The translations under genes and the position numbers were made by a program. Below are positions 9,567-57,495 of a stretch of DNA of 64,000 nucleotides, in pieces. A model generated the notes under the pieces. The model worked only from the letters and a program-made list of their open reading frames with translations, ran no database searches and was not told the DNA's origin. The stretch is taken from contig CAWJBH010000010.1 in assembly GCA_963841125.1 (NCBI GenBank), positions 161,049 to 225,048 on the forward strand, given 5' to 3'. Each line of letters opens with the position of its first letter. Position 1 is the first letter of the stretch. This DNA comes from an uncultured Acidobacteriaceae bacterium (GTDB lineage: Bacteria; Acidobacteriota; Terriglobia; Terriglobales; Acidobacteriaceae).

Positions 9567-9577
9567 TGGGAACAGGG

Positions 9578-9681
9578 CTGGTCAGTGAACAGTGGTCAGT
9601 GAGCGTAGTAAAGAGCAACGAACCGAGGACGTTCTTACTGATCACTCGCTGCCACTAGACCACTGACCACTGATTCACTGC
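9578..9681. repeat. Inverted GTGGTCA-heptamer arrays in the response-regulator / kinase spacer
   Basis: Left arm ggtcagtgaacagtggtcagtgagcg. Right arm cgctgccactagaccactgaccactgattcactgcc. The right arm overlaps the regulator stop codon, and the protein ends ...NQWSVV. Confidence 0.7.
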
Positions 9682-21823: not shown

Positions 21824-22054
21824 ATGGCTCAGGTAAAGATCACAGTCCGTCCCAATGGCCCCTACCGCGTAGAAGCAGCTGAAGGCTCGGTTGAACTTGT
21901 CGACGTCAACGGAACCCAGTACGACCTCACCGGCAAGCCTGCGTTTTCTCTCTGCCGTTGCGGCGGCTCGGTGAACAAACCTTTTTGTGACGGTGCGCAC
22001 AGCCGCATCGGATTTCAAGGCGCAGAACTGGCGGTAAAGAAGGCTGAAAGCTAG
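21824..22054 (+). CDS. CDGSH iron-sulfur domain protein
   Basis: Intact 76-aa ORF with CRCGGSVNKPFCDGAH, the CDGSH 2Fe-2S signature. GGAGGA lies 8 nt upstream. Confidence 0.88.
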   Translation: MAQVKITVRPNGPYRVEAAEGSVELVDVNGTQYDLTGKPAFSLCRCGGSVNKPFCDGAHSRIGFQGAELAVKKAES

Positions 22055-22085
22055 AAGCGAGAAGCCAGAAGCCAAGAGCTCTCAC

Positions 22086-24013
22086 ATGAGCGACCTAAAC
22101 GACCGCGAACTGGGAATGAAGCGCAATATCACGCGCCGTGACTTCCTCAACGGCGTGGCTGTGACCGCGGGCGCTGCGCTCATGCCGTGGCAGGTGTTCG
22201 GCTGCGGGCGATGTCGATCCCGAAAAATCTCAGGACTACTATCCGCCCGCGCTCACCGGACTGCGGGGCAGTCACGCCGGCTCCTTCGATGCTGCGCACG
22301 CTTTGCGCGACGGCTCTTTCTGGGACTCGGCCGGTACGCCCCAAGACACAGGTGAAACCTACGACCTCGTGATCGTTGGAGGCGGCATCAGCGGCCTTTC
22401 GGCGGCGCACTTCTATCGCAAGCTGCAGGTGTGAACGCGCGCATTCTTATCCTCGACAACCATGACGACTTCGGGGGACACGCCAAGCGCAACGAGTTTC
22501 GGGTGGGCCAGCGAACTCTACTGGGCTACGGCGGAACGTACTCCATCGAGAGCCCGGAGCCTTATAGCGATGTCGCCAGGGGCGTGATTGAGGAATTGGG
22601 AATCGATGTAACCAGCTTCCCGAAATATCTGGAGAGAGATCTCTACGGTTCCATGGGAAGAGTTCCGAAAATCTTCTTCGACAAGGAAACTTTCGGCAGC
22701 GACAAGCTCGTGGACGATCCATACCCTTTTCCTGGCGGCGAGACTTACGATCTGGCAGTCGCCGGGTCCGATGCGTGGACGCATTTCATGGCCGAAGCCC
22801 CGATTGCGGAGCAGGCGCGTAAGGATATTTCGCGCTTATGCCGGGAGAAGAAAGATTATCTTCCCGGACTAAGTGGCGATGAGCAAAAGGCGCGTCTGGC
22901 GCGCATCAGCTATGCCCAGTTCCTGACCGAACAGGCGGGCGTGCATGCGGACGTTATCCGCCTCTACCAGACAATCTCTCAGCCTCTATTTGGTGTGGGC
23001 ATCGAAGCTGTCTCCGCGCTGGATGCAGCGGAGTCAGGCTATCCGGGCTTCAGCGGAATGGATATTGTCCCGGAAGGGCGCTGAGCCAACGAACGGAAAT
23101 ATTTCTTCCACTTTCCCGATGGCAACGCGAGCATCGCGCGGTTGCTCGTCCGCAAGCTGATCCCGGAGTCCATGCCGGGCAATTCGGCGACCGATGTGGT
23201 CACCGCCAAGTGCGAACTACGCCAAGCTCGATGAAAAAGGATCGCCCGTGCGCATCCGATTGAACAGCACGGCGGTGCGGGTGAAGCATCTGGGTGATCC
23301 AGCGCGGGCCACCGAAGTTGAGGTAGCCTACGCCCGCGGCGGCAAGGTGTATACGGTCAGAGCGAAGCACGCAGTCCTGGCCTGCTGGAACATGATGATT
23401 CCGTACCTGTGCGAAGACCTGCCGGATACTCAGAAAGAGGCGCTGGCCTTCGCGCAGAAGGTGCCGCTGCTTTATACCAATGTGCTGTTGCGCAACTGGA
23501 CTGCATTTCAGAAGCTGGGAGCGAATTCCATCTACGCACCCGGCGGCTACCACACGCACGTCGACCTGGACCTGCCGGTTAGCATCGGGGAGTATCGCTG
23601 CCCACGCACGCCCGACGAGCCAACTGTGGTGCACATGAGCAAGTCTCCTTGCCGCGCAGGCCGGCCGGCGCGGGATCAACACACCGCCGGCCGCATCGAA
23701 CTCTACAACACGACTTTTGAAACCATGGAGCGCAAGATTCGCGAACAGTTGCTCCGGACCCTTGGGCCGGGCGGTTTTGATCCTGCACGCGACATCCTGG
23801 CCATCACAGTCAACCGCTGGCCTCACGGCTACGCCTACGAGTACAGCAGCCTCTGGGACAAGTTTGTGCTGGAAGGCGGCGAGACGCCGTGTGAGCGCGC
23901 GCGGAAAACCTTTCGGACGGATCGCGATCGCGAACTCCGACGCCGGCGCTCTCGCTTATACAGATGAGGCGATCAATCAGGCTTGGCGGGCGGTGGGGGA
24001 GTTGAAGAGCTAG
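22086..24013 (+). CDS. Tat-exported NAD(P)/FAD-dependent amine oxidoreductase (spermidine dehydrogenase-like), at least 4 frame switches
   Basis: Twin-arginine signal NITRRDFLNGVAVTAGAALMP. Dinucleotide fold YDLVIVGGGISGLSAAHFY, then ILILDNHDDFGGHAKRNEF. The rest lies in ORFs 22431, 23194 and 23717, ending LAYTDEAINQAWRAVGELKS*. Confidence 0.7.
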
Positions 24014-25089: not shown

Positions 25090-26328
25090 TCAGTGGATCG
25101 TCTTCGTCTTGCGCGACATGTAATCCATCAGCAGGTATTGGCCTAGCGTATACGGGGTGGTGAAGTAGGCTTTGCCGCGGCACATCTCGGTTACTTTCTG
25201 GACGAATTGCACCAATCCATAATCTGACGCGAGCATGAAGGTGTTGATGAGGACGCCGGCGCGCTTGCACTTCGAGACTTCTTCCAGCGTCTGGCTCACT
25301 ACTAGCGGGTCGAGGCCGAAGGCGTTTTTGTAGATGCGTCCGTCTTCGAGAGTCAGGGCGGAGGGTTTGCCGTCGGTGATCATGACGATCTGCTTCATGT
25401 CTTTTCTTTGGCGCTGCAGGATTCTTTGCGCCAGGCGCAGGCCTTCGCGCGTGTTGGTGTAATAAGGGCCGACCTTGACGCGGGCTAGCTGCGAGAGCGG
25501 GACTTCTTCGGCGGAGTCGTGAAAGAGCACGAGCGAGAGCGAGTCGCCGGGATACTGCGTGCGGATCAGATGCGAGAGCGCCATGGCAACTTTTTTCGCG
25601 GGAGTGAAGCGGTCTTCGCCGTAGAGGATCATCGAGTGCGAGCAGTCGAGCATCAGCACCGTCGCGCAGGAAGATTGATACTCGCACTGGTGAACTTGCA
25701 GGTCGCGGTATTCGATGTTGAGCGGCAGCGCGAGGCCTTCGCGCTGGATCGCGCTCGAGAGCGTGGCGGTGATGTCGAGGTTGAGCGTGTCGCCGAACTC
25801 GTAGGTGCGGGAAGCGCCGCTGGCTTCGATGCCGGTGGCGAGGTCGCGGGTGTCGTGGCGTCCAAAGCTGGATTTGCCGAGCGAGCCGAGCAGATTGCGC
25901 AGCGATTTGAAGCCGAGGAAGTCGAGGCTCTTGTCGGTGATTTCGAATTTCGCTTGCTGCTGGTTTTCGCCGACCTGGCCGCCCACGCTGGATGGTCGCG
26001 ACGGGTCAGGCGGTTGGTCGATTGAGATGTAATCTTCCTGCTGCATGCGCTCGATCAGCTTTTCGATGAGTTCGTCGAGTTCACCGTCCGCCGCCATTTG
26101 CTGCAGGCGCTCGCGCATGTCTTCGTCGAACTGATCGCCTTCCATCAGAGCTTGTTCGATGGCGCGGCGAAGGTCGTCGAGAGTCTGCTCGCCCTCAGGC
26201 ATTTCGTACCACATGTCGCTCTGGAAGCCGCTCTGCAGCAGGTAGTCGGAGAGCGCGCCGAGCAGGTCTTCCAGGCTCATTTCGCCGGCGGGGTCGGGAA
26301 CGTATTTGGAGTAGCGGATGCGTTTCAT
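25090..26328 (-). CDS. VWA-domain protein (partner of the upstream AAA+ ATPase)
   Basis: Intact 412 aa. MIDAS-like [20 protein letters not shown] and FHDSAEEV fit a VWA fold. Acidic N-terminal region. Confidence 0.75.
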
Positions 26329-26331
26329 AAG

Positions 26332-26431
26332 CAGTGGTTAGTGGTCAGTGGTCAGTGAAATCAGTGGCCAGCAAGGCCTCACTGGCCGATTAGCTACTAC
26401 TACTAATCACTGACCACTAGCCACTGACCAC
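26332..26431. repeat. Inverted GTGGTCA-heptamer arrays filling the AAA+ / VWA spacer
   Basis: Left arm cagtggttagtggtcagtggtcagtga. Right arm tcactgaccactagccactgaccact, a near-perfect complement. Loop of about 47 nt. The element occupies essentially the whole 104-bp gap. Confidence 0.8.
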
Positions 26432-26432
26432 T

Positions 26433-27941
26433 CTAGTTAAACTGTCTTCTCTGCCGGTACGGTGGTTCTTCTTTCTCGAAACTCTTTTCGCGCTGCGGTT
26501 CGGGCTTTTTTTCTCCGGCTTTGAACACTCGTTCTTCATTGCGGCCGATGCGTTTGTGCGCGTGCAGGCCTTCGAGAATAAATTCCGCGGCGGAGACCTG
26601 CTGCTCGGGACTTTCTTTTGCGAGACACTTCAGCGGGCCGAGTTTGTCGATCAGGCCCTGAATCTCTTTCAGGTTTTCGAGAGCTTCCAGCGGCGGAGAC
26701 CGAATCCGACAACTGAATCTCACCGCCCAGGTCGAACCACTGCACGATCTGCTGCACGTTGGCGCCGGTGAAATATTCGTCGTAGGTCTTCGCGATGGCG
26801 GCGCGGATCAGTTCGCGGCCCACGTAGTCTGCGCCTTTCATCTCGCCTTCGTATTCGAGTTCGAGTTTGCCGGTGATCGCGGGCAGCGCGGCATAGACGT
26901 CGCTGACGCGGGGCACGACCAGTTTTTCGTCATTGCGCAGAGCGCGGCGCTCGGCGTTCGAGATGACGTTCTCCATGGCAGTGATCGGCAGGCGCTGGCT
27001 CACGCCGCTGCGCTTGTCGATTTTCTTGTCTTCGCGGGCGGCGAAGGCGATGCGCTCGATCACTTCCTGAATGTAGGTGGGCAGGTGCATCGCTTGCGCT
27101 TCGCCTTGACTGCGCGCTGGTCCAGGCTTCCTGCGCGGTGATGGCGATGCCTTCATCGACCGTTGCGGGATAGTGCGTGCGAATCTCGGAGCCGATGCGG
27201 TCTTTGAGCGGGGTGATGATTTTTCCGCGGGCGGTGTAGTCTTCGGGATTCGCGCTGAAAACGATGGCAACGTCAAGCGGGAGGCGAATGGGATAGCCCT
27301 TAATCTGCACGTCGCCTTCCTGCATGATGTTGAACAGGCCGACCTGAATTTTTCCGGCGAGGTCGGGAAGTTCGTTGATGGCGAAGATGCCGCGATTGGC
27401 GCGGGGCAGCAGGCCGTAGTGAACGGTGAACTCGCTCGAAAGTTCGTGACCGCCGCGGGCGGCTTTGATGGGGTCGATGTCGCCGATGAGGTCGGCGATG
27501 GTGACGTCGGGCGTGGCAAGTTTTTCCACGTAGCGATCGTCGGGCGTGAGATAGGCACTGGGAGTGTCGTCGCCGAGGCGCGCGACTTCTTCGCGGCAAC
27601 GGCGGCAGATAGGGGCGTAGGGATTGTCGCGAATCTCGCAGCCCGGCGAGGTAGGGCATGTGAGGATCGAGCAGCGTCGTCAGGGCGCGCAGGATGCGGC
27701 TTTTGGCCTGGCCGCGCAGGCCGAGCAGAATGAAATTGTGCCGCGAAAGAATAGCGTTCACGATCTGCGGCACGACCGTGTCTTCATAGCCGACGATGCC
27801 GGGAAAAATGCCGGAGTCGTCGTGGTCACGCAGGCGGGCGATGAGGTTGTCGCGGAGTTCATCCTTCACGCGGCGGGTGCGCAGGCGTTCTTCGGAAAAA
27901 GCACTGCGGCGCAATTCGCCTAGCGTGCGCGGAAGACACAT
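26433..27941 (-). CDS. AAA+ ATPase of the Mg-chelatase ChlI/BchI-like (sigma-54-interaction type) family, at least 4 frame switches
   Basis: [13 protein letters not shown]...[38 protein letters not shown] (Walker A-like). [11 protein letters not shown] (Walker B-like). [26 protein letters not shown]. Fragments in ORFs 27300, 26930, 26536 and 26433. Confidence 0.75.
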
Positions 27942-28088
27942 GAGGAACCCCCAGAGGAACTTCTCTGGATTATACGCGGAAGAGCGGGCTTCGGCTCGTT
28001 CGGGCTTCGGCCGCAACAATCGCTCAAGCGACAATCTGTCGCGCTGAGGGCTTTCGGTTTGCCGAAGCCCGAAGCCCGAAAGCCGCCC

Positions 28089-28698
28089 TTAGTGCACGTG
28101 GCCGTTGCCGCCGGCTTTTTCGCGGGCGGTGGCGGCGCGGCGGAGATTGGAGATGAGGATTTCGAGATAGCTGATCAGCAAGGACAGACGCTCCGGTTCG
28201 GAGCGCAGGGCGAGCAGCTTTTGTTTGAAATCCAGATCGAGAGGCAGGGAGCCGGCCAGATAGAAAGAAAGCAACGAAAGGTCGGCGGCCGAGAGATCTT
28301 GTTTCGCGCCGGCGATGCGCCAGCAGTTCGGAGTGCAACTGGATTGCGCGAGAGGTGTCTTCCGGCGGCGGCGGTTCCGGGTTCGTCGTTGATCATGAGA
28401 ACTTCGGCTTGCAGGAAGGAACGTTCCTGGTTGACGCGCACGACTTCGAAACGCTGCGGCCTTCGGTGACGAGGTCGAGGCGGCCGTCAGGATACTCTTT
28501 CACGACGGTGACGATTTCGGCCGTGCATCCCACATCGGCCAGACCCTGCCCGAGGGCGCGCACCACTCCGAAGGTGCGATGCTCGGCGAGGCATTCGCCA
28601 ATCATTTCTTTGTAGCGCGGCTCGAAGATGTGCAGGGGCAGGGGAGTGCCGGGGAAGAGGACGACATCGAGCGGGAACAAGGGCAGAAGGGCGTCCAA
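28089..28698 (-). CDS. LON N-terminal (substrate-binding) domain protein, at least 3 frame switches
   Basis: MDALLPLFPLDVVLFPGTPLPLHIFEPRYKEMI...FGVV...GCTAEIV...PDGRLDLVTEG is the Lon N-domain signature. The tail lies in ORF 28089..28274. Confidence 0.75.
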
Positions 28699-28793
28699 GC
28701 AGTCTCCGGTGGGTGAGTGCGAAACGCAGCGCGCCGTCCCTGATTGTATCGCAGGGCTTGACTTAACAAGTTGATGAGGAATAAAAGCGCGCT

Positions 28794-29581
28794 ATGGATC
28801 TTTCAGGGAAAGTTGTAGTGGTGACGGGCGCTTCCATGGGAATCGGGGAAGCGATCGCGAAGATTTTTGCCGATCACGGCGCCAGCGTGGTGATGCTCTC
28901 GCGCGATGCGGGCCGGGTGGACGCGGCGCGCGGGCGCGTAGGGCAGGGCGAGCGAACGCTGGCGATGGCTTGCGACGTGCGGCACCGCGAGGATGTTGAC
29001 CGCGCGATCGGGCTGACGCTGCATCATTTCAAGAGAATCGATGTTTGGGTGAACAACGCGGGGCATGGGCTGCTGGATTCGGTGGCGCAGATGGATATGG
29101 CGGCGTGCCGGGAAATGTTCGACACGAATTTGTTTGGAGCGGTGGGGGCGATGCAGGCGGTGATTCCGGTGATGCGGCAGCAGGGCGGCGGGACGATTAT
29201 CAATATATCGAGCGTGGCCGGGCATATTCCGATCCCGTTCCATGCGGCTTACAGCGCGACCAAGTTTGCGCTGAATGCGATGGGCAAGGCTGCCGGCGTG
29301 GAGTTGAAGAAAGATGGGATTCATGTGCTGACGGTTTGTCCCGGGATATGTGCGGACGGCGTTTGGCAAGAATGCGATTCAGGGGAATGAGTTGAAGCGA
29401 GTGCGTCCGGATCGGTGAGGGGGATTACTGCCGAGCGGGTGGCGCGGGCCACGCTGCGGGGATATTTGAAGCGCAAGAGGGAAGTGATTGTGCCCTGGAC
29501 CATGTACGTGCCGCAGAAGATTTATCAGATTTTCCCGGCTGTGGTGGAGTGGGCGATGGGGAGGATGGCGGGCGTAAGTGA
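28794..29581 (+). CDS. Short-chain dehydrogenase/reductase, at least 2 frame switches; 3' end approximate
   Basis: VVVVTGASMGIGEAIA (TGxxxGIG), VNNAG, ISSVAG, YSATKFAL (YxxxK). Continues as CPGYVRTAFGKN after a shift, then ORF 29415. Confidence 0.8.
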
Positions 29582-29612
29582 GCTTGTAACACAGGACACT
29601 GGGTCACAGGTC

Positions 29613-29927
29613 TTACGAATTACCCAACTCCGCCAGCATGGCTTCCATCTCGCCCTGCGCGTGGAGGTTGCCGGTGCGGCGGGCGGAGGCAATGCCGTCG
29701 GTGAGCATGGTCTTTGGCTTCGGCGATTCGGTCGGCGCGCGCCAGGGTTTGGGCGGCCATGAAGTAGCCAGGAGTGTAGTCGGGACTGGTCTTGAGCAGG
29801 AGGAGAATTCGGCAAGCGAACGATCAAAGTCTCCCTGCTTGGAATATTCCATCGCCAATCCGTAGCGGGCGAAGGCGTCGTTCGGATTCTGAGTGAGGAC
29901 GTCGTTGAGAGCGGCGATGCGGTCCAT
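29613..29927 (-). CDS. Small TPR-like protein; the ORF stays open but appears to hide a compensating pair of frame switches
   Basis: MDRIAALNDVLTQNPNDAFARYGLAMEYSKQGDFDRSLAEF (TPR-like) and the C-terminal GNLHAQGEMEAMLAELG. The middle SSCSRPVPTTLLATSWPPKPW is low-complexity. The alternative frame gives TSPDYTPGYFMAAQTLARADRIAEAK. Confidence 0.5.
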   Translation of the reverse strand: MDRIAALNDVLTQNPNDAFARYGLAMEYSKQGDFDRSLAEFSSCSRPVPTTLLATSWPPKPWRAPTESPKPKTMLTDGIASARRTGNLHAQGEMEAMLAELGNS

Positions 29928-29980
29928 AGGCGGTGTCAGTAGCCGGTTCAGGATGAGATTACTACAACTTCACTTCCACC

Positions 29981-30121
29981 GCCCAAATTGCCGGTAGTGG
30001 TGCAGTTTGGCTTTTGTACACTTTGTCATCCTGAGTGTAGCCGTTTCTCAGGCGTAGCGAAGGATCTCCAGCTTAAGCGGACCAAAGCGTAGCCAAACCG
30101 CACCACTGCCCAAATTGCGGG
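29981..30121. repeat. MITE-like element: 17-bp terminal inverted repeats flanked by a 14-bp direct duplication
   Basis: Direct repeats gcccaaattgccgg (29981-29994) and gcccaaattgcggg (30108-30121). TIR agtggtgcagtttggct (29996-30012) versus agccaaaccgcaccact (30091-30107), 16 of 17 complementary. The core carries gtcatcctgag...gcgaaggatct. Confidence 0.6.
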
Positions 30122-30723
30122 AACTGGCAGAGGCTTCGGGGACTGATTACAATGGCAGCTCCTCGATTCCACAATTCGAGTTCAGATCGGAAGGTTTGCG
30201 ATTGGCTTGTCCGTTTTTCATGCCAGTGGAGAAGTTGGAGAATGCAACGTGGCTGCATGCGGGGCGGCTTCCGCTGGGATGCGGATGGAGCGGGCGCTGC
30301 ACCGCGCCCGGACACGAGGGTGAACTTCCATCCCAGGAAGAACTGCGGGAGTTCTGCAACCTAGGGTATGCCGAGGGTTGTGGAAAGTTGCCGCGGGAGC
30401 GAGTTGGGATTCCGTGCGGTTCGCGGCTCGAACCGTGGGCGGTGAAGGGAAGAGTGCTCGCGGACGCATTCAGATTCGCTACGTCTGCGAGCGTGGGCAT
30501 CGCCCTGCGGAGCACGGGACGCTGGAGTTTGATGCCGTTGACGCGCAGTGGGTAGGAGCCGCATCGCGACCGCCGCGTGCAGCGCATGGCTGAGTGTTTT
30601 CTGGAGTCGTTCCTGGAGAAGAAGAAGGCACGGAAGCGATGCGTGCGGCAGCCAGCTAGAGACGCCCTTCGGCTCCCCAAGTTTAAGACTTGCGATCGAC
30701 AGAAAGAGGAAAGACAAGTATGA
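30115..30723 (+). CDS. Cys/His-rich conserved hypothetical protein, at least 2 frame switches; start uncertain
   Basis: CPFFMPVEKLENATWLHAGRLPLGCGWSGRCTAPGHEG...EELREFCNLGYAEGCGKLP. Then (ORF 30378) IQIRYVCERGHRPAEHGTLEFD. Then MAECFLESFLEKKK. The last frame ends at a TGA overlapping the next gene's ATG (ATGA at 30720). Confidence 0.45.
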
Positions 30724-31221
30724 GCGAAGAGATGCTGATGCCGCGGCCGGTGCGGGACTCGCAGTCGGAGATGGCCGAGATTGTTCTGCCCAATGATGCC
30801 AATCCGCTGGGCGCACTGCTTGGTGGCCGGTTGATGCATTGGATCGATCTGGCGGGAGCGATGGCAGCCCATCGCCATTCGCGGAGTTACGCGGTGACAG
30901 CTTCGGTGGATCACATTGATTTCCTCGTGCCAGTGAGGGTGGGGGATCTGGTGATTCTGCGCTCCTCGGTGAACCGCGTGTTCCATACGTCGATGGAAAC
31001 TGGAGTGAAAGTTTTCGTAGAGAACTACATCGCGGACACGGCGCGACATGTTGCGTCGGCCTACCTGACGTTTGTGGCGGTGGATGGCTAAGGGAACCAA
31101 CGTGCGAGTCGCGCCGGTGATTCCCGAGACCGCGGAGCAGCAGCGGCGCTACGACGATGCTGGGCGTCGGCGCGAGATCCGGCGGGCGGAGCTGGAGCGG
31201 CGAAGGAAGGCAAAACGATAG
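30720..31221 (+). CDS. Acyl-CoA thioesterase (hotdog fold, YciA-like), one frame switch near 31088
   Basis: SEMAEIVLPNDANPLGALLGGRLMHWIDLAGAMAAHRH...VTASVDHIDFLVPVRVGDLV. After the shift, KGTNVRVAPVIPETAEQQRRYDDAGRRREIRRAELERRRKAKR*. Confidence 0.8.
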
Positions 31222-31241
31222 CGATTTTTCTTAGGAGCATA

Positions 31242-31457
31242 TTGGCGGGAATTGTCGCGGTGGTAGTAACGGCCATCGCTTCACTGTTCGTTATTGGGAT
31301 CTATTTATCGATCCACCATCCGGTGGACACGGGAGCGGACACTGGGGCAGTAGGATGGGATCCGATCTCTCTAACAAAACCTGCGACGTGGCTTCTCGTC
31401 CTTGGGATATTTCTGGCTGGGTCCGTTTGGGAGTTTCTTCGTGCAATTCGAAAGTAG
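31242..31457 (+). CDS. Small two-TM membrane protein (hypothetical)
   Basis: 71-aa ORF with two hydrophobic segments, GIVAVVVTAIASLFVIGIYLSI and ATWLLVLGIFLAGSVWEFL. No family recognised. Confidence 0.4.
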   Translation: MAGIVAVVVTAIASLFVIGIYLSIHHPVDTGADTGAVGWDPISLTKPATWLLVLGIFLAGSVWEFLRAIRK

Positions 31458-31591
31458 CCCGCGGCCGGGCTTCGCCTAGTCCTGACAGCCGAGGCGGCTG
31501 TCTCCTCATGGGCATCGTTGTCTCGCTCTGTATAATCAAGGGTTAAGCCATCCTGCATTGATCCTTGGAGTGTGATCCTTTGAATGCACAT

Positions 31592-32432
31592 ATGCCGTCT
31601 CATCCCGGGCAAGCCGCGCCGGGGCCGCAACCGTTGCCGGGAGTTGACGCCATCATTGCCGTGGGTTCGGGCAAGGGCGGAGTGGGCAAGACCACGCTGT
31701 CGGTAAACCTGGCCGTGGCTCTGGCCAAGATGGGGCACAAAGTCGGCCTGCTCGATGCCGATGTGTATGGGCCGAACGTGCCGCTGATGCTGGGCGTGAG
31801 CGGGCAGCCGAAGATGGTCGGCGAAAATCGCATCGAGCCGCTGGAGGCGTTTGGGCTGAAGGTGATTTCGGTGGGATTTCTGAATCCCGGCGACAAGCCC
31901 ATCATCTGGCGCGGTCCCATGCTGCACCAGATCGTGAAGCAGTTTCTGGGACTGGTGGAGTGGGGACATCTCGATTACATGGTCGTCGATCTGCCGCCGG
32001 GGACGGGCGATATCGCGCTGTCGCTGGTGCAGTCGGTGCCGCTGACGGGCGCGGTGGTGGTTTCGACTCCGTCTGATGTTTCCTTGCAGGATGCGCGCAA
32101 GGCCATCGAAATGTTCCGCCAGATGAAGGTCGATCTGGTGGGCGTGGTCGAGAACATGAGCTATTTCACGTGTCCGCACTGCAATCACGAGATCGATATT
32201 TTCTCGCGCGGCGGCGCGGAGAAGATGGCGGCGCATTTCAGCGTGCCGTTTCTCGGAAGCATCGAGCTTGACCCGGAAGTGCGCAAGTCCGGCGACGGCG
32301 GAAAGCCGATCGTGCTGGAGGGCGAGAATTCGCCGCACGCCAAGTCGATCTTTGCAGTTCGCGCGGAAGGTCGCGGCGCGGGTGGGAGAGATCAAAGCAG
32401 GCGAGTCGGCCAGCGTGATTCAGATTCAGTAG
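31592..32432 (+). CDS. Mrp/NBP35-family Fe-S cluster carrier ATPase (ApbC-like), one frame switch near 32350
   Basis: IAVGSGKGGVGKTTLSVNLA (deviant Walker A), LDADVYGPNVP, VVDLPPGTGD, and YFTCPHCNHEIDIF (CxxC). Reconstructed tail ARKVAARVGEIKAGESASVIQIQ*. Confidence 0.88.
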
Positions 32433-32443
32433 GAAGATCATTT

Positions 32444-32518
32444 ACCACGCGCGACACAAGGGAACACGAGGGTAAAACTCTGCGTGACTACCCGTGTAGC
32501 CTCTGTGTCCCCCGTGGT
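32444..32518. repeat. Imperfect 75-nt palindrome between convergent genes
   Basis: ACCACG..GACACA..GGGAACACGAGGGT...ACCCGTGTAGCCTC..TGTGTC..CGTGGT, with outer and middle arms perfectly complementary. A related taccccgtgt tandem lies at 52118-52140. Confidence 0.6.
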
Positions 32519-32590
32519 CAAGATTTTGGCTGTCTCGCTGAGAAAATCGCGACAGCCGCCAACACGCGTCGGCTTCGCCATCCTTCAGAA

Positions 32591-33684
32591 TCAATCCGCC
32601 ATCATCTCTCCTAGCGCCGGCCCGTGCTTGAACCCGTGCCCGGAGCCGCCGCCTAGCAGCCAGACATTATTCATTCGAGGATGGCGATCCACGATGAAGT
32701 GGCTGTCGGCAGTCTGCTCATACTGGCAGACGCGCGTCTCGATCAGCGGAGCATCTTTCATCGCGGGGAAGCGAAAGGCGATATATTCGCGAACGCGCTT
32801 CAGCGTCGCCTGACTGACGACTCGCTCGCCCGAAGTGGGATCGAAGTCGGCCACCGCGCGTGTCGTCGGCCACTTTGAATCCGCGGCGGTCGCTGCCGGG
32901 GATGCCGTAGAAGAAATCGGTCCGCCGTGATCGCCCCACACGGGAAGATGCGTCGTCGGTGAAGCGCGAGTCTCCGGCGGGTGTGCCGAAGAAAAAGATG
33001 TCCTGTTTGGTGGAGCGAATCAACGTCGCCCAGAGTCTCCGGGAACAGCTTGCCCAGCCACGGACCGCAGGCAAAGACGTAGTAATCGGCTTTGAGCCGC
33101 GAGCCGTCCGAGAGCTTAAGTTGCGCAGAGCGCGCCGCTCTCCAGCCCATCGGCTGAGACTGCGACCTGTCGATATATCGCCGCCTTCGGCGACGAAAGC
33201 ATCGACCACGGCCTGGCAACTGGCGCGGGCATCAAGGTATCCGCATTCGGGCTCGAAGATTCCCCAACGGACGCCTGCGAAGTTGATCTGCGGCCAGCGT
33301 TTTTTCATCTCGGGTGTGGAGAGTTCCTGAAACTTGATCCCGGCTCGGCGCAGCACCTGCGAGCGAGCCGCCGATTCATGCTCGAATGAATCATCGCGGT
33401 GCTGACCATCCAGAGAACTCCGGTGCGATGCAGAAATTGCCGTTTCCAGCGCCGTTCGTATTTCGGCCACAGCGTCAGAGCGCGTGCGGCCAGTTCGGTG
33501 TAAGGCTGGCCGGGGCCGTAGGTGCCGCGCATGATGCGGGTTTCGCCGCCAGAAGATGCGCGCGAGTTGCCGGACCCCAGGCGTCGAGCAGGGTGACGCG
33601 GGCTCCGCGCTTCAAGAAGATGAAGGGCGGTCCAGCCGCCGAAGGCGCCGGCACCGACGACAGCGATGTGGGGTTGGATTTCAT
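32591..33684 (-). CDS. FAD-dependent oxidoreductase (DAO / sarcosine-oxidase-like), at least 4 frame switches
   Basis: Reconstructed N-terminus [57 protein letters not shown], a Rossmann GxGxxG. C-terminal FIVDRHPRMNNVWLLGGGSGHGFKHGPALGEMMAD. Confidence 0.75.
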
Positions 33685-37697: not shown

Positions 37698-37791
37698 GAG
37701 GACTGCCGTCCCGGTAGTCTAATCGAGCGAAGCCCGAGGTGTATGTGAGGACAGCCGCCCTCGGCTGTCCAATCGAGCGAAGCTCGACGCC
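37698..37791. repeat. Two tandem copies of the GGACAGCCGCCCTCGGCTGTCC-AATCGAGCGAAGC hairpin repeat
   Basis: gaggactgccgtcccggtagtctaatcgagcgaagcccgagg, then gaggacagccgccctcggctgtccaatcgagcgaagctcgacgcc. Same family as 21697-21737 and 55138-55177. Confidence 0.75.
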
Positions 37792-51325: not shown

Positions 51326-51500
51326 CGTGTGGAGCGGACACTCCTGTCCGCTGCTTTTGACGTTGCCTTTGCCCTTGCTTTTGAAGTTGCCCGTGTGGAG
51401 CGGACACTCCTGTCCGTTGCTTTTGACTTTGACTTTGCTTTTGAATTTGAGTCGAATCAAAGCGGCACAACCGTGGAAGAGCGGCGCTTCAGCGCCGCGT
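51326..51500. repeat. Block of hairpin repeats: two AGCGGACA-CTCC-TGTCCGCT units plus one GCGGCGC-TTCA-GCGCCGC unit
   Basis: cgtgtggagcggacactcctgtccgctgcttttgac at 51326 and a near copy at 51391. ccgtggaagagcggcgcttcagcgccgcgtaa ends at 51500. The same modules occur at 51995-52032 and 55993-57390. Confidence 0.8.
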
Positions 51501-51572
51501 AAAGCCCCACAATGAATCAGGGGCTTCAGCCCCAGTGGTCAAATATCCCCCACTTTCCGAACGATTCCCAAA

Positions 51573-52223: not shown

Positions 52224-54704
52224 CTACGCCCCACTCCGAATCCGCATCCCATAAAACGACCGGTAAACAAAGAAGAACGAAACCAGAAAGAAACCCAAAG
52301 CCAGCACATTGGTGATCATCGGCCCCTGGTTATTGGTAAGCGTAACCGCCAACTCCACCGCCAGCAATCCAAACAAGGTAGTGAACTTGATGACCGGATT
52401 CAAAGCCACCGACGAGGTATCCTTGAACGGATCGCCCACCGTATCGCCAATCACAGTAGCGTCGTGCAGCGGAGTCCCTTTCTGCTTCATCTCCACTTCC
52501 ACAATCTTCTTCGCGTTGTCCCAGGCTGCACCGGCGTCGGCCATAAAGATTGCCTGATAGAGACCGAAGATCGCAATGGAAATCAGATAGCCGATGAAGA
52601 AGAACGGCTCCACGAAGGCGAAAGCCAGCGTGCCGAAGAACACCGCGATAAAGATGTTCAACATCCCCTTCTGCGCATACTTCGTGCAGATCTCGACCAC
52701 CTTCTTGCTGTCCGCCACCGAAGCCTTCACCACGCCATCCAGCTTGATGTTCGCTTTGATGAACTCAACCGCCCGGTAGGCCCCGGTAGTAACCGCCTGC
52801 GTAGAAGCTCCAGTGAACCAGTAAATCATCGCGCCGCCCGTAATCAATCCAAGAAAGAACGGAGCGTGCAATAGCGAGAGCTTGTTTACGTCCGCGGTAA
52901 GGCCGCTGGTGAGCGCCATGATGATGGAAAAAATCATCGTGGTAGCGCCCACCACAGCCGTGCCGATCAACACCGGCTTGGCCGTGGCCTTGAACGTGTT
53001 CCCCGCGCCATCATTGGCCTCGAGCAGGTATTTCGCCCGCTCGAAGTTCACTCCCATGTTGTAATCCTTCTTGATTTCCGCCTCCACGTTCGGCACCGAC
53101 TCGATCAAAGAAAGTTCATACACCGATTGCGCATTGTCGGTAACCGGCCCATAAGAATCCACCGCAATGGTCACCGGACCCATGCCCAGAAATCCAAAAG
53201 CCACCAGCCCAAAAGCAAACACCGCCGGAGCCAGCATCGTCGCCGCCCCCGCCAGTCCCATCGTGCTGAAGTAATAAGCCACCGACATCAGCAGGACCAT
53301 CGACAGCCCCAGGTAGTAGCACGAAAAATTTCCCGCCACAAACCCCGAAAGAATTCCCAGCGACGCCCCGCCTTCCTCCGCCGAAGTAACTACTTCCTTC
53401 ACATGCCGCGATTCCGTCGAAGTAAACGACTTCACCAGCTCCGGAATCAGCGCTCCCGCCAAGCGTTCCGCAGGAAATAATCACCGCCAGTTTCCACCAC
53501 TGAGAAATGTCCCCACCCAGCTCCGGAATAATGAAGTAAGACACCAGAAACGTCAGCCCGATCGAAACAATCGAAGTCAGCCATACCAGCGTCGTAAGCG
53601 GCGTCTCGAAATTCATTTCATTCGCGCTGCCAAACCGCGCCTTCGCGATAGTCGCATTCAGGAAGTACGAAACCGCGCTCGCCACCAGCATCATCACGCG
53701 CATCACAAAAATCCAAACCAGCAACTGCACTTGCACCGTAGGACTCTTCACCCCCAGCAGAATAAAAGTAATCAGCGCCACGCCCGTGACCCCATAAGTC
53801 TCAAACCCGTCCGCCGAAGGCCCCACCGAATCCCCAGCGTTGTCGCCAGTGCAATCGGCAATCACGCCCGGATTCCGCGCGTCGTCTTCCTTGATCTTGA
53901 AAACAATCTTCATCAAGTCCGACCCAATATCGGCAATCTTCGTAAAAATGCCGCCCGCAATCCGCAGCGCCGCCGCCCCTAAAGATTCGCCAATGGCAAA
54001 TCCAATAAAGCAAGGCCCGGCATAATCGCCCGGAACGAACAGTAAAATGATCAGCATGATCAGCAATTCCACGCTGATCAGCATCATGCCAATGCTCATG
54101 CCCGGCCTCCAGCGGAATCTGATAAACCGGAAACGGTTTCCCCGGCAAAGCCGCAAACGCGGTCCGCGAATTCGCAAACGTGTTCACCCGAATGCCAAAC
54201 CACGCCACGCCATAGCTTCCGCCAATCCCCACCAGGCTGAATCCCAAAATAATCGCAACCCGCATCGCTTCCATATGCTGCAGCACGCCAAAATAAAGCA
54301 GAATGATGACCGCAATAAACGCCCACAGCAGCAAAATGAATTTCCCCTGCGTCACCAGATAGGTTTTGCAAGTCTCATAAATCAGCTCTGAAATCTCCCG
54401 CATCGACCGATGCACCGGAAGATTCTTCAGCCGCATATAAATGACCATGCCAAACCCCAGCCCGAAGATGCAGAACAGAATCCCAATCATCAACAGCCGA
54501 TGCCCGTCGATCGCCCACTGCAAAAACGGCACCGACGAAAGGTCAGGAAGTTTCAGCGAAGCCTCGCCGCCGGCCTCGCCAGGGCTGGGCCCAAGCCCGC
54601 CCGGCGCCCAATCCCACGAGCGCCGCCAGTCCCAAAGTCTTCCCCACCACTCCGGACGCCGCGCGGCATCCTTCAAACGCAGCAGTAGCCAGCCAAGTAC
54701 GCAT
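52224..54704 (-). CDS. hppA: Membrane-bound H+-translocating pyrophosphatase, at least 3 frame switches
   Basis: GGAGG 7 nt upstream of the ATG at 54704. GGIFTKIADIGSDLMKIV, DDARNPGVIADCTGDNAGDSVGPSADGFETYG, DSYGPVTDNAQ, NTFKATAKP, AGAAWDNAKK, and GDTVGDPFKDTSSVALNPVIKF. Confidence 0.93.
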
Positions 54705-55029
54705 AATGAGTCCTCCAAATGATTTCGGTTTTTTCAGGAATACTGAAGCGGTGTTGTGTGATTGTCATCCTGAGCAAGCGTTCCGGCGACGCCGCGAAGG
54801 ATCTGAGCGAGCCGCGCGAAGTGTCGCGTTCGTTGCGACACAATAATCGCGCGTTTGGCTCGCTTCCCTGAATTCCGAACACGCTTCCACCGCAAAACAA
54901 GAACGGAGTGTTGGAGCTTGGCCGCGTCGGAGGTAAAGCGCCCGAGCCGGAAAATAAACTCCGCCCGGACACACGACCTCAAAACAGGCGTTTATAACAC
55001 TTTCGCAACAAACGGGTCAATCGGGGAAC

Positions 55030-55292
55030 CAGTGGTCAGTGGTCAGTGGTCAGTGGACAGAAAAAACAGGCAGCAGTATCAAGCACCAGAGATCCTAAAT
55101 GTGGGAACAGGATGTGGGGAATGGGAACAGGATGTGGGGACAGCCGCCCTCAGCCGTCCGGCCGAGCAAAGCTCGCCGTTTTGTGACTTACCCTCCCAAC
55201 CCCGAAATCCACCACGGAGATCTGCTCCGCCCCCCAGCGCTTTTCACTGACCACTGACCACTGACCACTGACCACTAATCACTGACCACTGC
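55030..55292. repeat. Composite element: (GTGGTCA)n array, 185-bp interior, inverted (TGACCAC)n array
   Basis: Left cagtggtcagtggtcagtggtcagtggacag (55030-55060). Right cactgaccactgaccactgaccactgaccactaatcactgaccact (55245-55292). The interior holds a 19-bp direct repeat tgggaacaggatgtgggga x2 (55102-55140) and a GGACAGCCGCC hairpin (55138-55177). Confidence 0.8.
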
Positions 55293-55750
55293 CTACCCCA
55301 GCCACTCCCAAGCCTCCCGATACCCCTCCCACCGCGGATTCCGGCTCTTCAAATCCGGAAAAAATCTCAAACTCTTCACCCCTACAAAAGCCGCGATCGG
55401 CAGCAGATACCAGACTTCTTTCTCTTCCGCAATCACATGCGCCGCCAGCACATCAATATCGCTCGCCGTATAAGTTTTCTTCCCCTCGCCCCGCGTAGAA
55501 TAAACCGGCTGCACATCATATCCCCCGCGATACAACCGCCCCGTACCCTTAACCTGCACCCGCAAAACCGCCCGCCCGGCCGCGCCCACACGATAAAGTC
55601 ACACTTCTCGCTGTCTCCCCAAGGCACCGCCAACCCAAACCCCAACGCCTGCGCCCGCACCAAAAACGCCCCCTGCGACAACTCCCCCATCCGCTTAGGA
55701 TTCCCCCAAGCCCGCTCCCACCACCGCCCATCCGGATCCTCCACCGCCAT
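55293..55750 (-). CDS. Small stand-alone PD-(D/E)XK nuclease (group-I-intron-endonuclease-like family), one frame switch near 55575; start uncertain
   Basis: NPKRMGELSQGAFLVRAQALGFGLAVPWGDSEKCDFIVW joins VLRVQVKGTGRLYRGGYDVQ...YTASDIDVLAAHVIAEEKEVWYLLPIAAF...LRFFP. D...(Q/E)VK nuclease core. Confidence 0.6.
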
Positions 55751-55992
55751 AATCCAGGAAACAAATCCCGGCACCCCTCCATCCCCGCCGCCATCCGCTC
55801 GCCGCCATTCCAACGCATCGACATTCCGAATCCTCCCTGCACCCATGACCAACATGAAAAGCATAAGCCCTTCCCATTTCGGACCCATGTGACATCCAAC
55901 CATCCCAACCCTGTGGAAATAACCAAGAATCGTGTGGAGGATGTGTGGAAGCGGGCGCACCCGCCCGCTGTTCGTTGCCTTCGATCGCCTTG

Positions 55993-57495
55993 CCCGTGTG
56001 GAGCGGACACTCCTGTCCGCTGCTTTTGACGTTGATTTTGACTCTGCCTTTTGACTTTGATCCAGACTGCAGGGGAGCGAAGATTCGTATCAGCGTATGC
56101 CTTCAGGCATACCGAAAGCCAACACCACCGTGGAAGAGCGGCGCTTCAGCGCCGCGCAAAGCCACCCTAAATTAACCCTTGTCATTCCGAACAGGGCCAA
56201 AGGCCCGGTGAGGAACCTGCTGTTGACTTTCGCCGCCACCCCGCACCCGTGTAGAACGGACACTCCTGTCGTTGCCTTTGACGTTGATTTTGCCTTCGAC
56301 TGCGACCGCACCCTCCTAGACGGGGTGCCCCATTTCTCGCGTCCTTTGCGAGAAGTGGGAACCACGGATGCCCGCAGCGCCGTTCTTGAAGTTGATGCTG
56401 CCTTTGACCTGGAAAACTCGTATCAGGATATGCCTTCACGCATACCGAACCCCAACACCCCCGCGGAAGAGCAGCGCTTCAGCGCCGCATAAAGACACCC
56501 TAAATTAACCTTTGTCATTCCGAACAGGGCCGCAAGGCCCGGTGAGGAACCTGCTGTTGACCTTCGCCACCACCGCGCCGCCCGCGTGGAACGGACACTC
56601 CGTCAGTTGCTTTTGACGTTGATTCAGGATTCGTATCAGCGTATGCCTTCAGGCATACCGAAAGCCAACACCACCGTGGAGAGCGGCGCTTCAGCGCCGC
56701 GCAAAGCCACCCTAAATTAACCCTTGTCATTCCGAAAAGGGCCAAAGGCCCAGTGAGGAACCTGCTGTGATGTTCGCCGCCACCCGCACCCGTGTAGAAC
56801 GGACACTCCTGTCGTTACCTTTGACGTTGATTTTGCCTTCGACTGCGACCGCACCCTCCTAGACGGGGTGCCCCATTTCTCGCGTCCTTTGCGAAAAGTG
56901 GGAACCACGGATGCCCGCAGCGCCGTTCTTGAAGTTGATGCTGCCTTTGACCTGGAAAACTCGTATCAGGATATGCCTTCACGCATACCGAACCCCAACA
57001 CCCCCGCGGAAGAGCAGCGCTTCAGCGCCGCGTAAGGCCCACCAAACCCCAGCCGCAAAGCGGCGAAAGAATGCAGCCCACGGCGCAAGCCGTGGGTAAA
57101 GCAGAAAAAGAGAAACGAGCCCCGCAGGGGCGGCAGAGAAATCGCCCGTGTGGAACGGACACTCCTGTCCATTACCCTTGACGTTGACTTTGAATTCGAC
57201 CGCACCCTGATCAGAAGAGGGTGCCCCATCTTTCGCGTCTTTTGCGAAAGGTGGGAACCACGGAAGCCCGCAGCGCCGTTCTTGATGTTGATGTCGCTTT
57301 TGACCTTGAACAATTCGTATCAGGGTATGCCTTCAGGCATATCGAAACCCGGCACCACCGTGGAAGAGCGGCGCTTCAGCGCCGCGTAAGGCCCACCAAA
57401 CCCTAGCCGCAAAGCGGCGAAAGAATGCAGCCCACGGCGCAAGCCGTGGGTAAAGAGAAAAGGGAACAACCAAGTCCCGTAGGGACGGAAGAGAC
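55993..57495. repeat. 1.5-kb ORF-free mosaic of nested and tandem hairpin repeats
   Basis: Near-identical direct copies at 56082-56488 and 56628-57031 (offset 546 to 543 nt, about ten differences by eye). A diverged third module lies at 57145-57390. gcccaccaaaccc.agccgcaaagcggcgaaagaatgcagcccacggcgcaagccgtgggtaaag is duplicated at 57036 and 57389. All listed ORFs here translate repeats. Confidence 0.85.

Follow-up and report, generated by a model that had tools for sequence, protein, structure and literature searches.

Cyanobacteria reportedly carry STRR heptanucleotide repeats with the units CCCCAGT, TTGGTCA, and CAACAGT, which Mazel et al. are said to have described in 1990. Other heptamer arrays have been surveyed in genomes. 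TAACTGA repeats are found in Beggiatoaceae, Cyanobacteria, and Bacteroidetes, where they are intergenic, often end a few nucleotides from start codons, and are patchily distributed across phyla; nearly all arrays are direct, with one inverted case among 170 sets (MacGregor 2015, PMC4679880). In Xanthomonas, (GGGAATC)n arrays are paired and convergent, and their positions are kept while their lengths vary between species (Rehm et al. 2015, PMC4692102). The latter report also describes heptamer SSRs as over-represented in many bacteria and proposes slippage as the cause. Among non-heptameric intergenic repeats, REPs stabilize upstream mRNA and are targeted by IS elements for insertion (Tobes and Pareja 2006, via PMC4692102), and ISPpu9 inserts in REPs.

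We analyzed a 64,000-nucleotide stretch of the genome of an uncultured Acidobacteriaceae bacterium (GenBank assembly GCA_963841125.1, contig CAWJBH010000010.1; referred to here as the window) that contains a long palindrome built from heptamer arrays. The hppA-proximal arm, at 55030-55060, is a period-7 array of 4.4 copies with 95% matches according to TRF, reading (CAGTGGT)n on the plus strand and (TGACCAC)n in the sense of the adjacent genes. The nuclease-proximal arm, at 55245-55291, was detected by both TRF and a repeat finder and contains 6.7 copies with 90% matches; it reads (CACTGAC)n on the plus strand and (GTGGTCA)n in the direction of the flanking genes, and it includes a single variant unit, CACTAAT. 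Neither arm was assigned a strand. These copy numbers agree with a preliminary description of the locus, which had counted four GTGGTCA units on the left and at least six complementary units on the right. The two arrays are separated by a gap of 184 nt (55061-55244; 185 in that description) and so do not form a simple hairpin. The repeat finder aligned 55031-55066 with 55241-55276 at 92% complementarity across 36 nt, and the stem is lengthened by an A-run and a T-run at the loop edges (GAAAAAA, 55060-55066; GCTTTTC, 55238-55244), an extension that is present in most orthologues. The two-unit 14-mer GTGGTCAGTGGTCA occurs 9 times in the window with at most one mismatch, compared to an expectation of 0.02 (0/100 shuffles). 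Read in the sense of the genes, the order is stop codon, (GTGGTCA)n, AAAA, loop, TTTTT, (TGACCAC)n, 9 nt, and TTGACC. The element measures 263 bp and has no coding capacity.

This architecture resembles several of the described systems. The STRR2 unit TTGGTCA is one base apart from GTGGTCA, and STRR and TAACTGA arrays have a CAGT/ACTG core in common with the window element. Inverted pairs make up 42% of the GTGGTCA arrays among the matches listed, compared to nearly none of the TAACTGA arrays. With the Xanthomonas pairs, the element shares 7-nt tandem units, an intergenic position, and convergent arms on opposite strands, the 5' arm being the G-rich one on either strand; in both systems gene context is kept, length and sequence are variable, and a site usually remains of one type, either single or an inverted pair. 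The element thereby has the features of a paired heptameric SSR, namely, period-7 arrays that converge on opposite strands and keep their position with a variable number of units. It differs from the Xanthomonas pairs in phylum and heptamer, and GTGGTCA is unable to form a G-quadruplex. The gathering of other dispersed repeats in the loop, presented below, is not described in PMC4692102. Like the REP/BIME and REPIN elements of proteobacteria, the element is an intergenic palindrome following a stop codon, but its arms are tandem heptamers, whereas a REP is a unique 20- to 40-nt palindrome. It resembles MITEs in its small size, inverted ends, and noncoding content and differs from them in having neither a target-site duplication nor a second copy in the window or L001-L142 and in having arms that stay while the interior changes. 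A literature search found no mention of tandem GTGGTCA/TGACCAC in the bacterial papers covered. Convergent heptamer pairs in Xanthomonas and STRR-like arrays are already known; what is added here, loop turnover and polarity across phyla, is modest.

The palindrome lies between two minus-strand genes, with a nuclease gene upstream and hppA downstream. The nuclease gene (55293-55840, 5' end approximate) encodes a PD-(D/E)XK endonuclease (PDDEXK_5) identified by a match to Pfam PF11645. Its stop codon, TAG (55293-55295), is separated from the right array by a single base, in agreement with the preliminary description, which had placed the end of the right arm at this stop. hppA, encoding a membrane H+-pyrophosphatase, spans 52224-54704 with its ATG at 54704 and is represented by three open reading frames (ORFs) that match the H_PPase profile. 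A generic promoter scan missed the minus-strand hppA promoter at 54991-55020, which has a -35 box, TTGACC, at 55015-55020, an 18-nt spacer, and a -10 box, TATAAA, at 54991-54996, preceded by TGT. Of 93 distinct metagenome loci, 71 have the arrangement TTGACC-N17-TATAAA and 12 more have an 18-nt spacer. With the promoter mapped beside the arm, at a distance of 9 nt from the start of the -35 box, the palindrome is seen to fill the interval from the nuclease stop to 9 nt short of the -35 box.

RNA folding of 55020-55300 gave -144.3 kcal/mol (z = -6.3), in a structure where the arms pair with each other and the interior folds separately, and the arms are predicted to form 18- to 40-bp duplexes in 7/7 complete orthologues. 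At this site all seven orthologues have a sense RNA duplex that exceeds the antisense duplex in stability, since mismatched positions form G·U pairs in the sense strand. The same advantage was found at 4/15 other loci, where gene orientation was taken from crude stop-to-stop ORFs; as the bias is not general, we did not count it as evidence of selection, and it may be inherited rather than selected. The left arm does not pair best with its own right arm, the arms being too alike between relatives for any signal of cognate coevolution to be detectable. No U-run follows the outer stem, where the next sequence is GGUUCCCCGAUUGACC and the T-run is internal, preceding the 3' arm; the palindrome is therefore not a canonical intrinsic terminator. 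A scan for a canonical terminator or promoter within the element returned terminator-like matches at background level and zero promoters, and the only terminator candidate was a weak 5-bp stem inside the REP-like element described below, on the opposite strand. A search of 54650-55350 against Rfam gave no match better than E = 4.5, and at the gathering score the whole window contained one tRNA and two Acido-Lenti-1 copies, all elsewhere than the element.

Orthologous sites were collected from contigs bearing homologues of the frame-corrected nuclease and from contigs bearing a conserved 24-mer of the hppA leader. Among related Acidobacteriaceae, 11 contigs have heptamer arms immediately before the hppA promoter, and in 10 of these the arms directly follow the nuclease stop; both arms are kept in 9/11, and in the L140 and L142 contigs the arm seen is the nuclease-proximal one. 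That arm is at the same place in L122, L139, L140, L141, L142, L146, L151, L173, L175, and L183, the hppA-proximal arm is at the same place in L122, L139, L141, L151/L183, and L173, and the DNA on both sides of the palindrome can be aligned across the orthologous loci. Local drift is apparent in the orthologous arrays as the unit variants GTGGCTA, GTGGTCG, and GTGGCCA.

The interior behaves differently. At least six different interiors are found between the persisting arms. The shortest is in L139, where both arms enclose a 34-nt loop and form a near-perfect hairpin (-61 kcal/mol, z = -5.5). In L151/L183 the interior of approximately 150 nt is collinear with that of the window minus 33 nt, and in L140 the sequence after the nuclease-proximal arm is that of the window up to the contig end. 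L141, whose two arms are degenerate, has a REP-like hairpin and distal part in common with the window, and the remainder of its interior differs. Both arms of L122 enclose an interior of approximately 350 nt that is wholly different from that of the window, and those of L173 enclose approximately 110 nt that differs again. Other repeat families fill the interiors of L142, in which the nuclease-proximal arm is seen before the contig end, and of L146/L175, in which the arm proximal to the hppA promoter has been lost. L146 and L175 have 5 and 11 units, respectively, in a junction that is otherwise identical over the compared length (276 nt in L175). In L121, three genes separate the nuclease from hppA and the palindrome remains with the hppA promoter; its left arm has 7 units, its hppA-proximal right arm is reduced to CCAGTGGCCACTG, and its interior is yet another one. 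The interiors of L122 and L142 are made up of repeat families that recur at numerous other positions, both in other loci and in the window, where copies lie at 51388-51502, 55991-56046, 56127-56156, 56586-56625, and 57008-57390. Other cargos, which the preliminary description had suggested looking for, were found at this site in L122, L142, L173, L146/L175, and L121. An empty site was not: every relative with the nuclease-hppA junction keeps at least the nuclease-proximal arm, no site that lacks both arms was found among them, and L139 is "empty" of the interior only. Where the nuclease has other neighbors, GTGGTCA arms are absent in L137/L138, and L124 and L129 carry GGGCTTC after the stop.

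The window's own loop, the 184 nt at 55061-55244 (no strand assigned), was delimited from the sequence, the RNA fold, and the homologous interior in L140, L151/L183, and, in part, L141. It contains the two features that had been noted in the preliminary description. The first is a direct repeat of 19 bp, TGGGAACAGGATGTGGGGA, found at 55102-55120 and 55122-55140 (0 expected), which belongs to a 20-bp tandem duplication at 55102-55140 (TRF period 20, 2.0 copies, 100%). The duplication results from a window-specific expansion of 33 nt at 55106-55138 (no strand assigned) that has no counterpart in L141 and L151/L183: these contigs read CCCCACAT followed by TAG(A/G)ATC at this position, with CCACAT directly joined to TAGGATC in L151/L183. 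The expansion reiterates ATGTGGG-AACAGG, a pattern expected of slippage and not of transposition. It overlaps the 5' end of the second feature, a REP-like double hairpin on the plus strand at 55132-55177 with the structure ATGTGG-GGACAGCCGCCCTCAGCCGTCC-GGC-CGAGCAAAGCTCG-CC. GGACAGCCGCCCTCAGCCGTCC, at 55138-55159, has a sister copy, GGACAGCCGCCCTCGGCTGTCC, at 37749-37770, with 2 mismatches between the two. The hairpin resembles REPs in being short, GC-rich, palindromic, and dispersed, but it has only 2 copies in the 64-kb window; others are found in L020, L068, L140, and L141, with a shared consensus of 45 to 55 nt. The family is real but small within the window. In a search of the window and L001-L142, only this REP-like part of the interior matched nonorthologous places, and nothing else of the interior was found apart from the orthologous L140/L141 and the REP-like copy in L020. 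Its presence in the window, L140, L141, and L151/L183 indicates that the REP-like hairpin entered the loop before these lineages diverged.

We consider it likely that the element is a vertically inherited heptamer palindrome whose loop turns over, with no transposing unit, and we infer for it a role as an RNA hairpin. This reading agrees with the second of two possibilities raised in the preliminary description, a nested insertion into a heptamer palindrome, which is supported by the 34-nt loop of L139, the L151/L183 interior lacking 33 bp, and the unrelated repeats at the other sites. The palindrome would have started with a short loop, comparable to the 34 nt of L139 and to the median of approximately 55 nt elsewhere, although the short loop of L139 could instead be a secondary deletion and not the ancestral state. 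Comparison of the orthologues places the entry of the REP-like double hairpin, with accompanying sequence, in a lineage ancestral to the window, L140, L141, and L151/L183. The window alone later acquired the 33-nt local reduplication that gave rise to the 20-bp tandem repeat, and whole units were added to or dropped from the arms by slippage. In other lineages, different dispersed repeats entered the same loop.

The same reading includes a possible account of how the element works. Upon transcription of the upstream gene, the arms would pair into a stem of 25 to 40 bp. In the manner of REP/BIME hairpins, this stem could protect, define, or process the 3' end of the upstream transcript and could keep read-through from reaching the hppA promoter and leader. 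Probably, the palindrome acts as an RNA hairpin, and the upstream transcript is ended or insulated by it. In DNA, a palindrome of this length might extrude as a hairpin or cruciform, leaving a loop that would be single-stranded and selectively neutral. Such a loop would favor and tolerate the insertion of small repeats that transpose through single strands, as well as slippage, and small repeats would collect there for this reason. The site provides an unusually clear natural series, with one orthologous hairpin in about a dozen relatives having either a 34-nt loop or one of at least six small-repeat fillings. The series shows that a long repeat palindrome can serve as a fixed landmark while its loop acts as a hot or safe spot for small-repeat insertion and slippage.

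A competing explanation, which we regard as unlikely though by no means negligible, is that the arrays arise and persist by replication slippage and that the inverted pair and its loop are neutral, functionless by-products. The over-representation of heptamer SSRs in many bacteria, for which slippage has been proposed (PMC4692102), is in keeping with this idea, as are the whole-unit length polymorphism (5 versus 11) and the loss of one arm in L146/L175, the lack of detectable coevolution between cognate arms, and the failure of the sense bias to generalize (4/15). The distribution of GTGGTCA arrays at large is harder to accommodate. An exact search for three consecutive GTGGTCA units in one genome per species found at least 120 loci in at least six phyla, including Acidobacteriota, Planctomycetota, Verrucomicrobiota, Chloroflexota, Cyanobacteria, and Bacteroidota; Nostoc, Calothrix, and Microcoleus are among the matches listed. 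A complementary array (at least 17/21 matches) lies within 600 nt downstream of 48 of the 113 perfect arrays with enough flank among these matches and upstream of 2; under a stricter definition the counts are 26 and 1. The arrangement 5'-(GTGGTCA)n..(TGACCAC)n-3', which is also that of the window site, therefore accounts for 26/27 strict and 48/50 relaxed pairs among the matches listed. Because this arrangement is strand symmetric, with the G/T-rich arm 5' on whichever strand is read, the polarity is real. By itself, slippage accounts neither for the strict polarity of the pairs across phyla (48 versus 2 among the matches listed), nor for the retention of both arms in 9/11 contigs, nor for palindromes that directly adjoin stop codons, start codons, and the -35 box. 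Loops among the matches listed are mostly 10 to 140 nt, with a median of approximately 55 nt, which places the 184 nt of the window in the upper tail. A crude survey of flanking genes found 29 palindromes between codirectional, 13 between divergent, and 7 between convergent genes (n = 49), with no depletion between divergent genes (13/49). As a separate observation, the (TGACCAC)n 3' arm contains TGA in every frame and the 5' arm contains no stop. In L140 (750-796) and L142 (700-750), the nuclease has no stop of its own; the ORF enters the array and ends at the TGA of a CAGTGAT unit.

The first possibility raised in the preliminary description, a nonautonomous, MITE-like mobile element in which the heptamer arrays are terminal inverted repeats and the arms and interior moved in as a unit, is in our view improbable. 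The inverted arms, the absence of coding capacity, the size of 263 bp, and the presence of the same heptamer across phyla would all suit such an element, as would four Pyrinomonadaceae genomes with a common loop of approximately 65 nt and no flank homology. In the lineages compared here, however, it is the arms that are fixed, in 11 contigs, while at least six interiors, including one of 34 nt, come and go between them; we therefore reject, for the present copy, a reading in which terminal inverted repeats surround a cargo. The interior of the window is found at the orthologous site only, the REP-like part excepted (window and L001-L142), and the three GTGGTCA palindromes of the window have loops unrelated to one another. 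Target-site duplications were looked for at the outer edges of the element, and none was found in the window or in the aligned orthologues; instead, the outer flanks, GGGGAAC and CCTACCCC, are inverted-complementary rather than direct, and the palindrome continues into them. The local drift of the arm units is likewise expected of resident arrays. Inverted ends alone are thus insufficient for calling MITEs.

Finally, that two independent arrays flank ordinary single-copy DNA is exceedingly improbable: solo GTGGTCA arrays are indeed common, 58% of those among the matches listed having no partner within 600 nt, but the arms are 92% complementary and fold together, the short-loop orthologue in L139 is a plain hairpin, and the relatives present the opposite of the pattern named in the preliminary description as decisive for this explanation (a conserved interior in relatives lacking the arrays), with conserved arrays, a variable interior, and no conservation of the interior in array-free relatives.

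A broader interpretation can be entertained, one that is speculative and, in our judgment, doubtful: GTGGTCA-type palindromes might form a cross-phylum, polar, intergenic class, always with a G/T-rich 5' arm and an A/C-rich 3' arm on either strand and often flush with stops, starts, and promoters, that is read by a conserved single-strand RNA- or DNA-binding protein that counts heptamers. Their loops would be protected landing pads for small mobile repeats, and in Pyrinomonadaceae the whole hairpin would be mobile. In the four Pyrinomonadaceae genomes, the GTGGTCA arms surround the loop TGATTGAGATGTCAAGCATAAAGTTGAACGTCAATG in either orientation (L001:1659-1839, L061:7458-7601, L090:7443-7625, and L110:2865-3050), and every copy adjoins a start codon, directly upstream. 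Neither blastn nor tblastx detected flank homology among the four copies. The common loop without flank homology indicates that heptamer-armed units can be dispersed in other lineages, and the Pyrinomonadaceae unit is possibly a dispersed heptamer-armed element, either mobile or a portable 5' cassette. By analogy, a mobile origin of the present copy in the distant past is possible.

The window contains other heptamer elements. Two further GTGGTCA palindromes, at 9577-9673 and 26328-26434, lie between codirectional minus-strand genes and have loops of approximately 50 nt. A distance of 3 nt separates the end of the latter from the ATG at 26328, which has no Shine-Dalgarno sequence, and this adjacency to a start codon, like that of the four Pyrinomonadaceae copies, recalls the TAACTGA arrays. 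In palindromes of the heptamers GTCGTTG (2856-2940) and GGGCTTC (27980-28085), too, the G/T-rich arm is the 5' one. An unpaired (AGAAGCC)n array at 22040-22075 lies approximately 10 nt upstream of the ATG at 22087. L055, a contig from the metagenome-assembled genome of an uncultured Acidobacteriaceae bacterium, is syntenic with 27012-32607 of the window at 82 to 89% identity; between 29935-30702 and L055:4264-5390 the two are unrelated, with GTGGTCA arrays in L055 (4959-4979 and 5302-5390) and none in the window. From this alignment, it looks as though heptamer palindromes have been gained or lost between the window and this close relative. In L129 (4546-4690), a (GGGCTTC)n array is interrupted by an insert of approximately 100 bp between direct copies of GGGCTTCGGGCTTCGG (compare L124:5564-5620), which reads as a further case of a heptamer array that has taken up an insertion.

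A repeat thicket upstream of the nuclease gene, at 55960-57461, contains several families of small repeats that recur in the palindrome loops of relatives. It includes a 354-bp tandem duplication at 56789-57461, 87% identical, with Acido-Lenti-1 RNA at 57051-57096 and 57405-57450. Loop filling may help explain the buildup of such dense repeat thickets in the intergenic regions of Acidobacteria.

The genes on both sides of the palindrome look decayed in this genome. The three hppA ORFs span H_PPase profile positions 1-114, 108-315, and 314-644, and relative to the intact hppA of L122 (88% identity), the gene has three frame-breaking indels: a loss of 2 or 3 nt near 54575-54582 and gains of 1 nt near 54100 and near 53464. 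The nuclease gene, whose homologues are approximately 180 amino acids long with 87% identity, is frameshifted by a 1-nt deletion near 55590, as judged from three-frame translation and alignment to L183, and the hppA leader is altered at 54745-54870. Because the other long genes of the window are intact, these lesions suggest pseudogenes rather than general assembly error. With its flanking genes damaged, the palindrome may be functionless in this genome.

The 5' leader of hppA, approximately 250 to 300 nt (54705-54990, minus strand), is strongly conserved across many Acidobacteria contigs. An alignment of 74 loci from L143-L262 (A3) contains the conserved blocks CCGACGCGGCCAAGCT, TTGCGGTGGAAGCGTGTTCGGAATTCCGG, GCCTAAACACGTT, and ATTCCT..GGAGGA..ATG; the loci were fetched via the 24-mer, so the 24-mer block is invariant by construction. 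RNAalifold pairs the first bases of the leader, GUUUUGC, with the Shine-Dalgarno region and includes one covarying pair (GC 28, GU 19, AU 19), and there is a second covarying pair (AU 26, CG 26). The leader has no match in Rfam, and none of the papers searched deals with an RNA leader of hppA in Acidobacteria; a riboswitch-like leader not described before is one possibility. In the window, the leader does not contain the GCCTAAACACGTT block and carries the dispersed repeat GGGAAGCGAGCCAAACGCGCGATTATTGTGTCGCAA...GGATGACAATCA, which in L121 and L141 is an insertion between duplicated copies of TCCTGAAAACCG.
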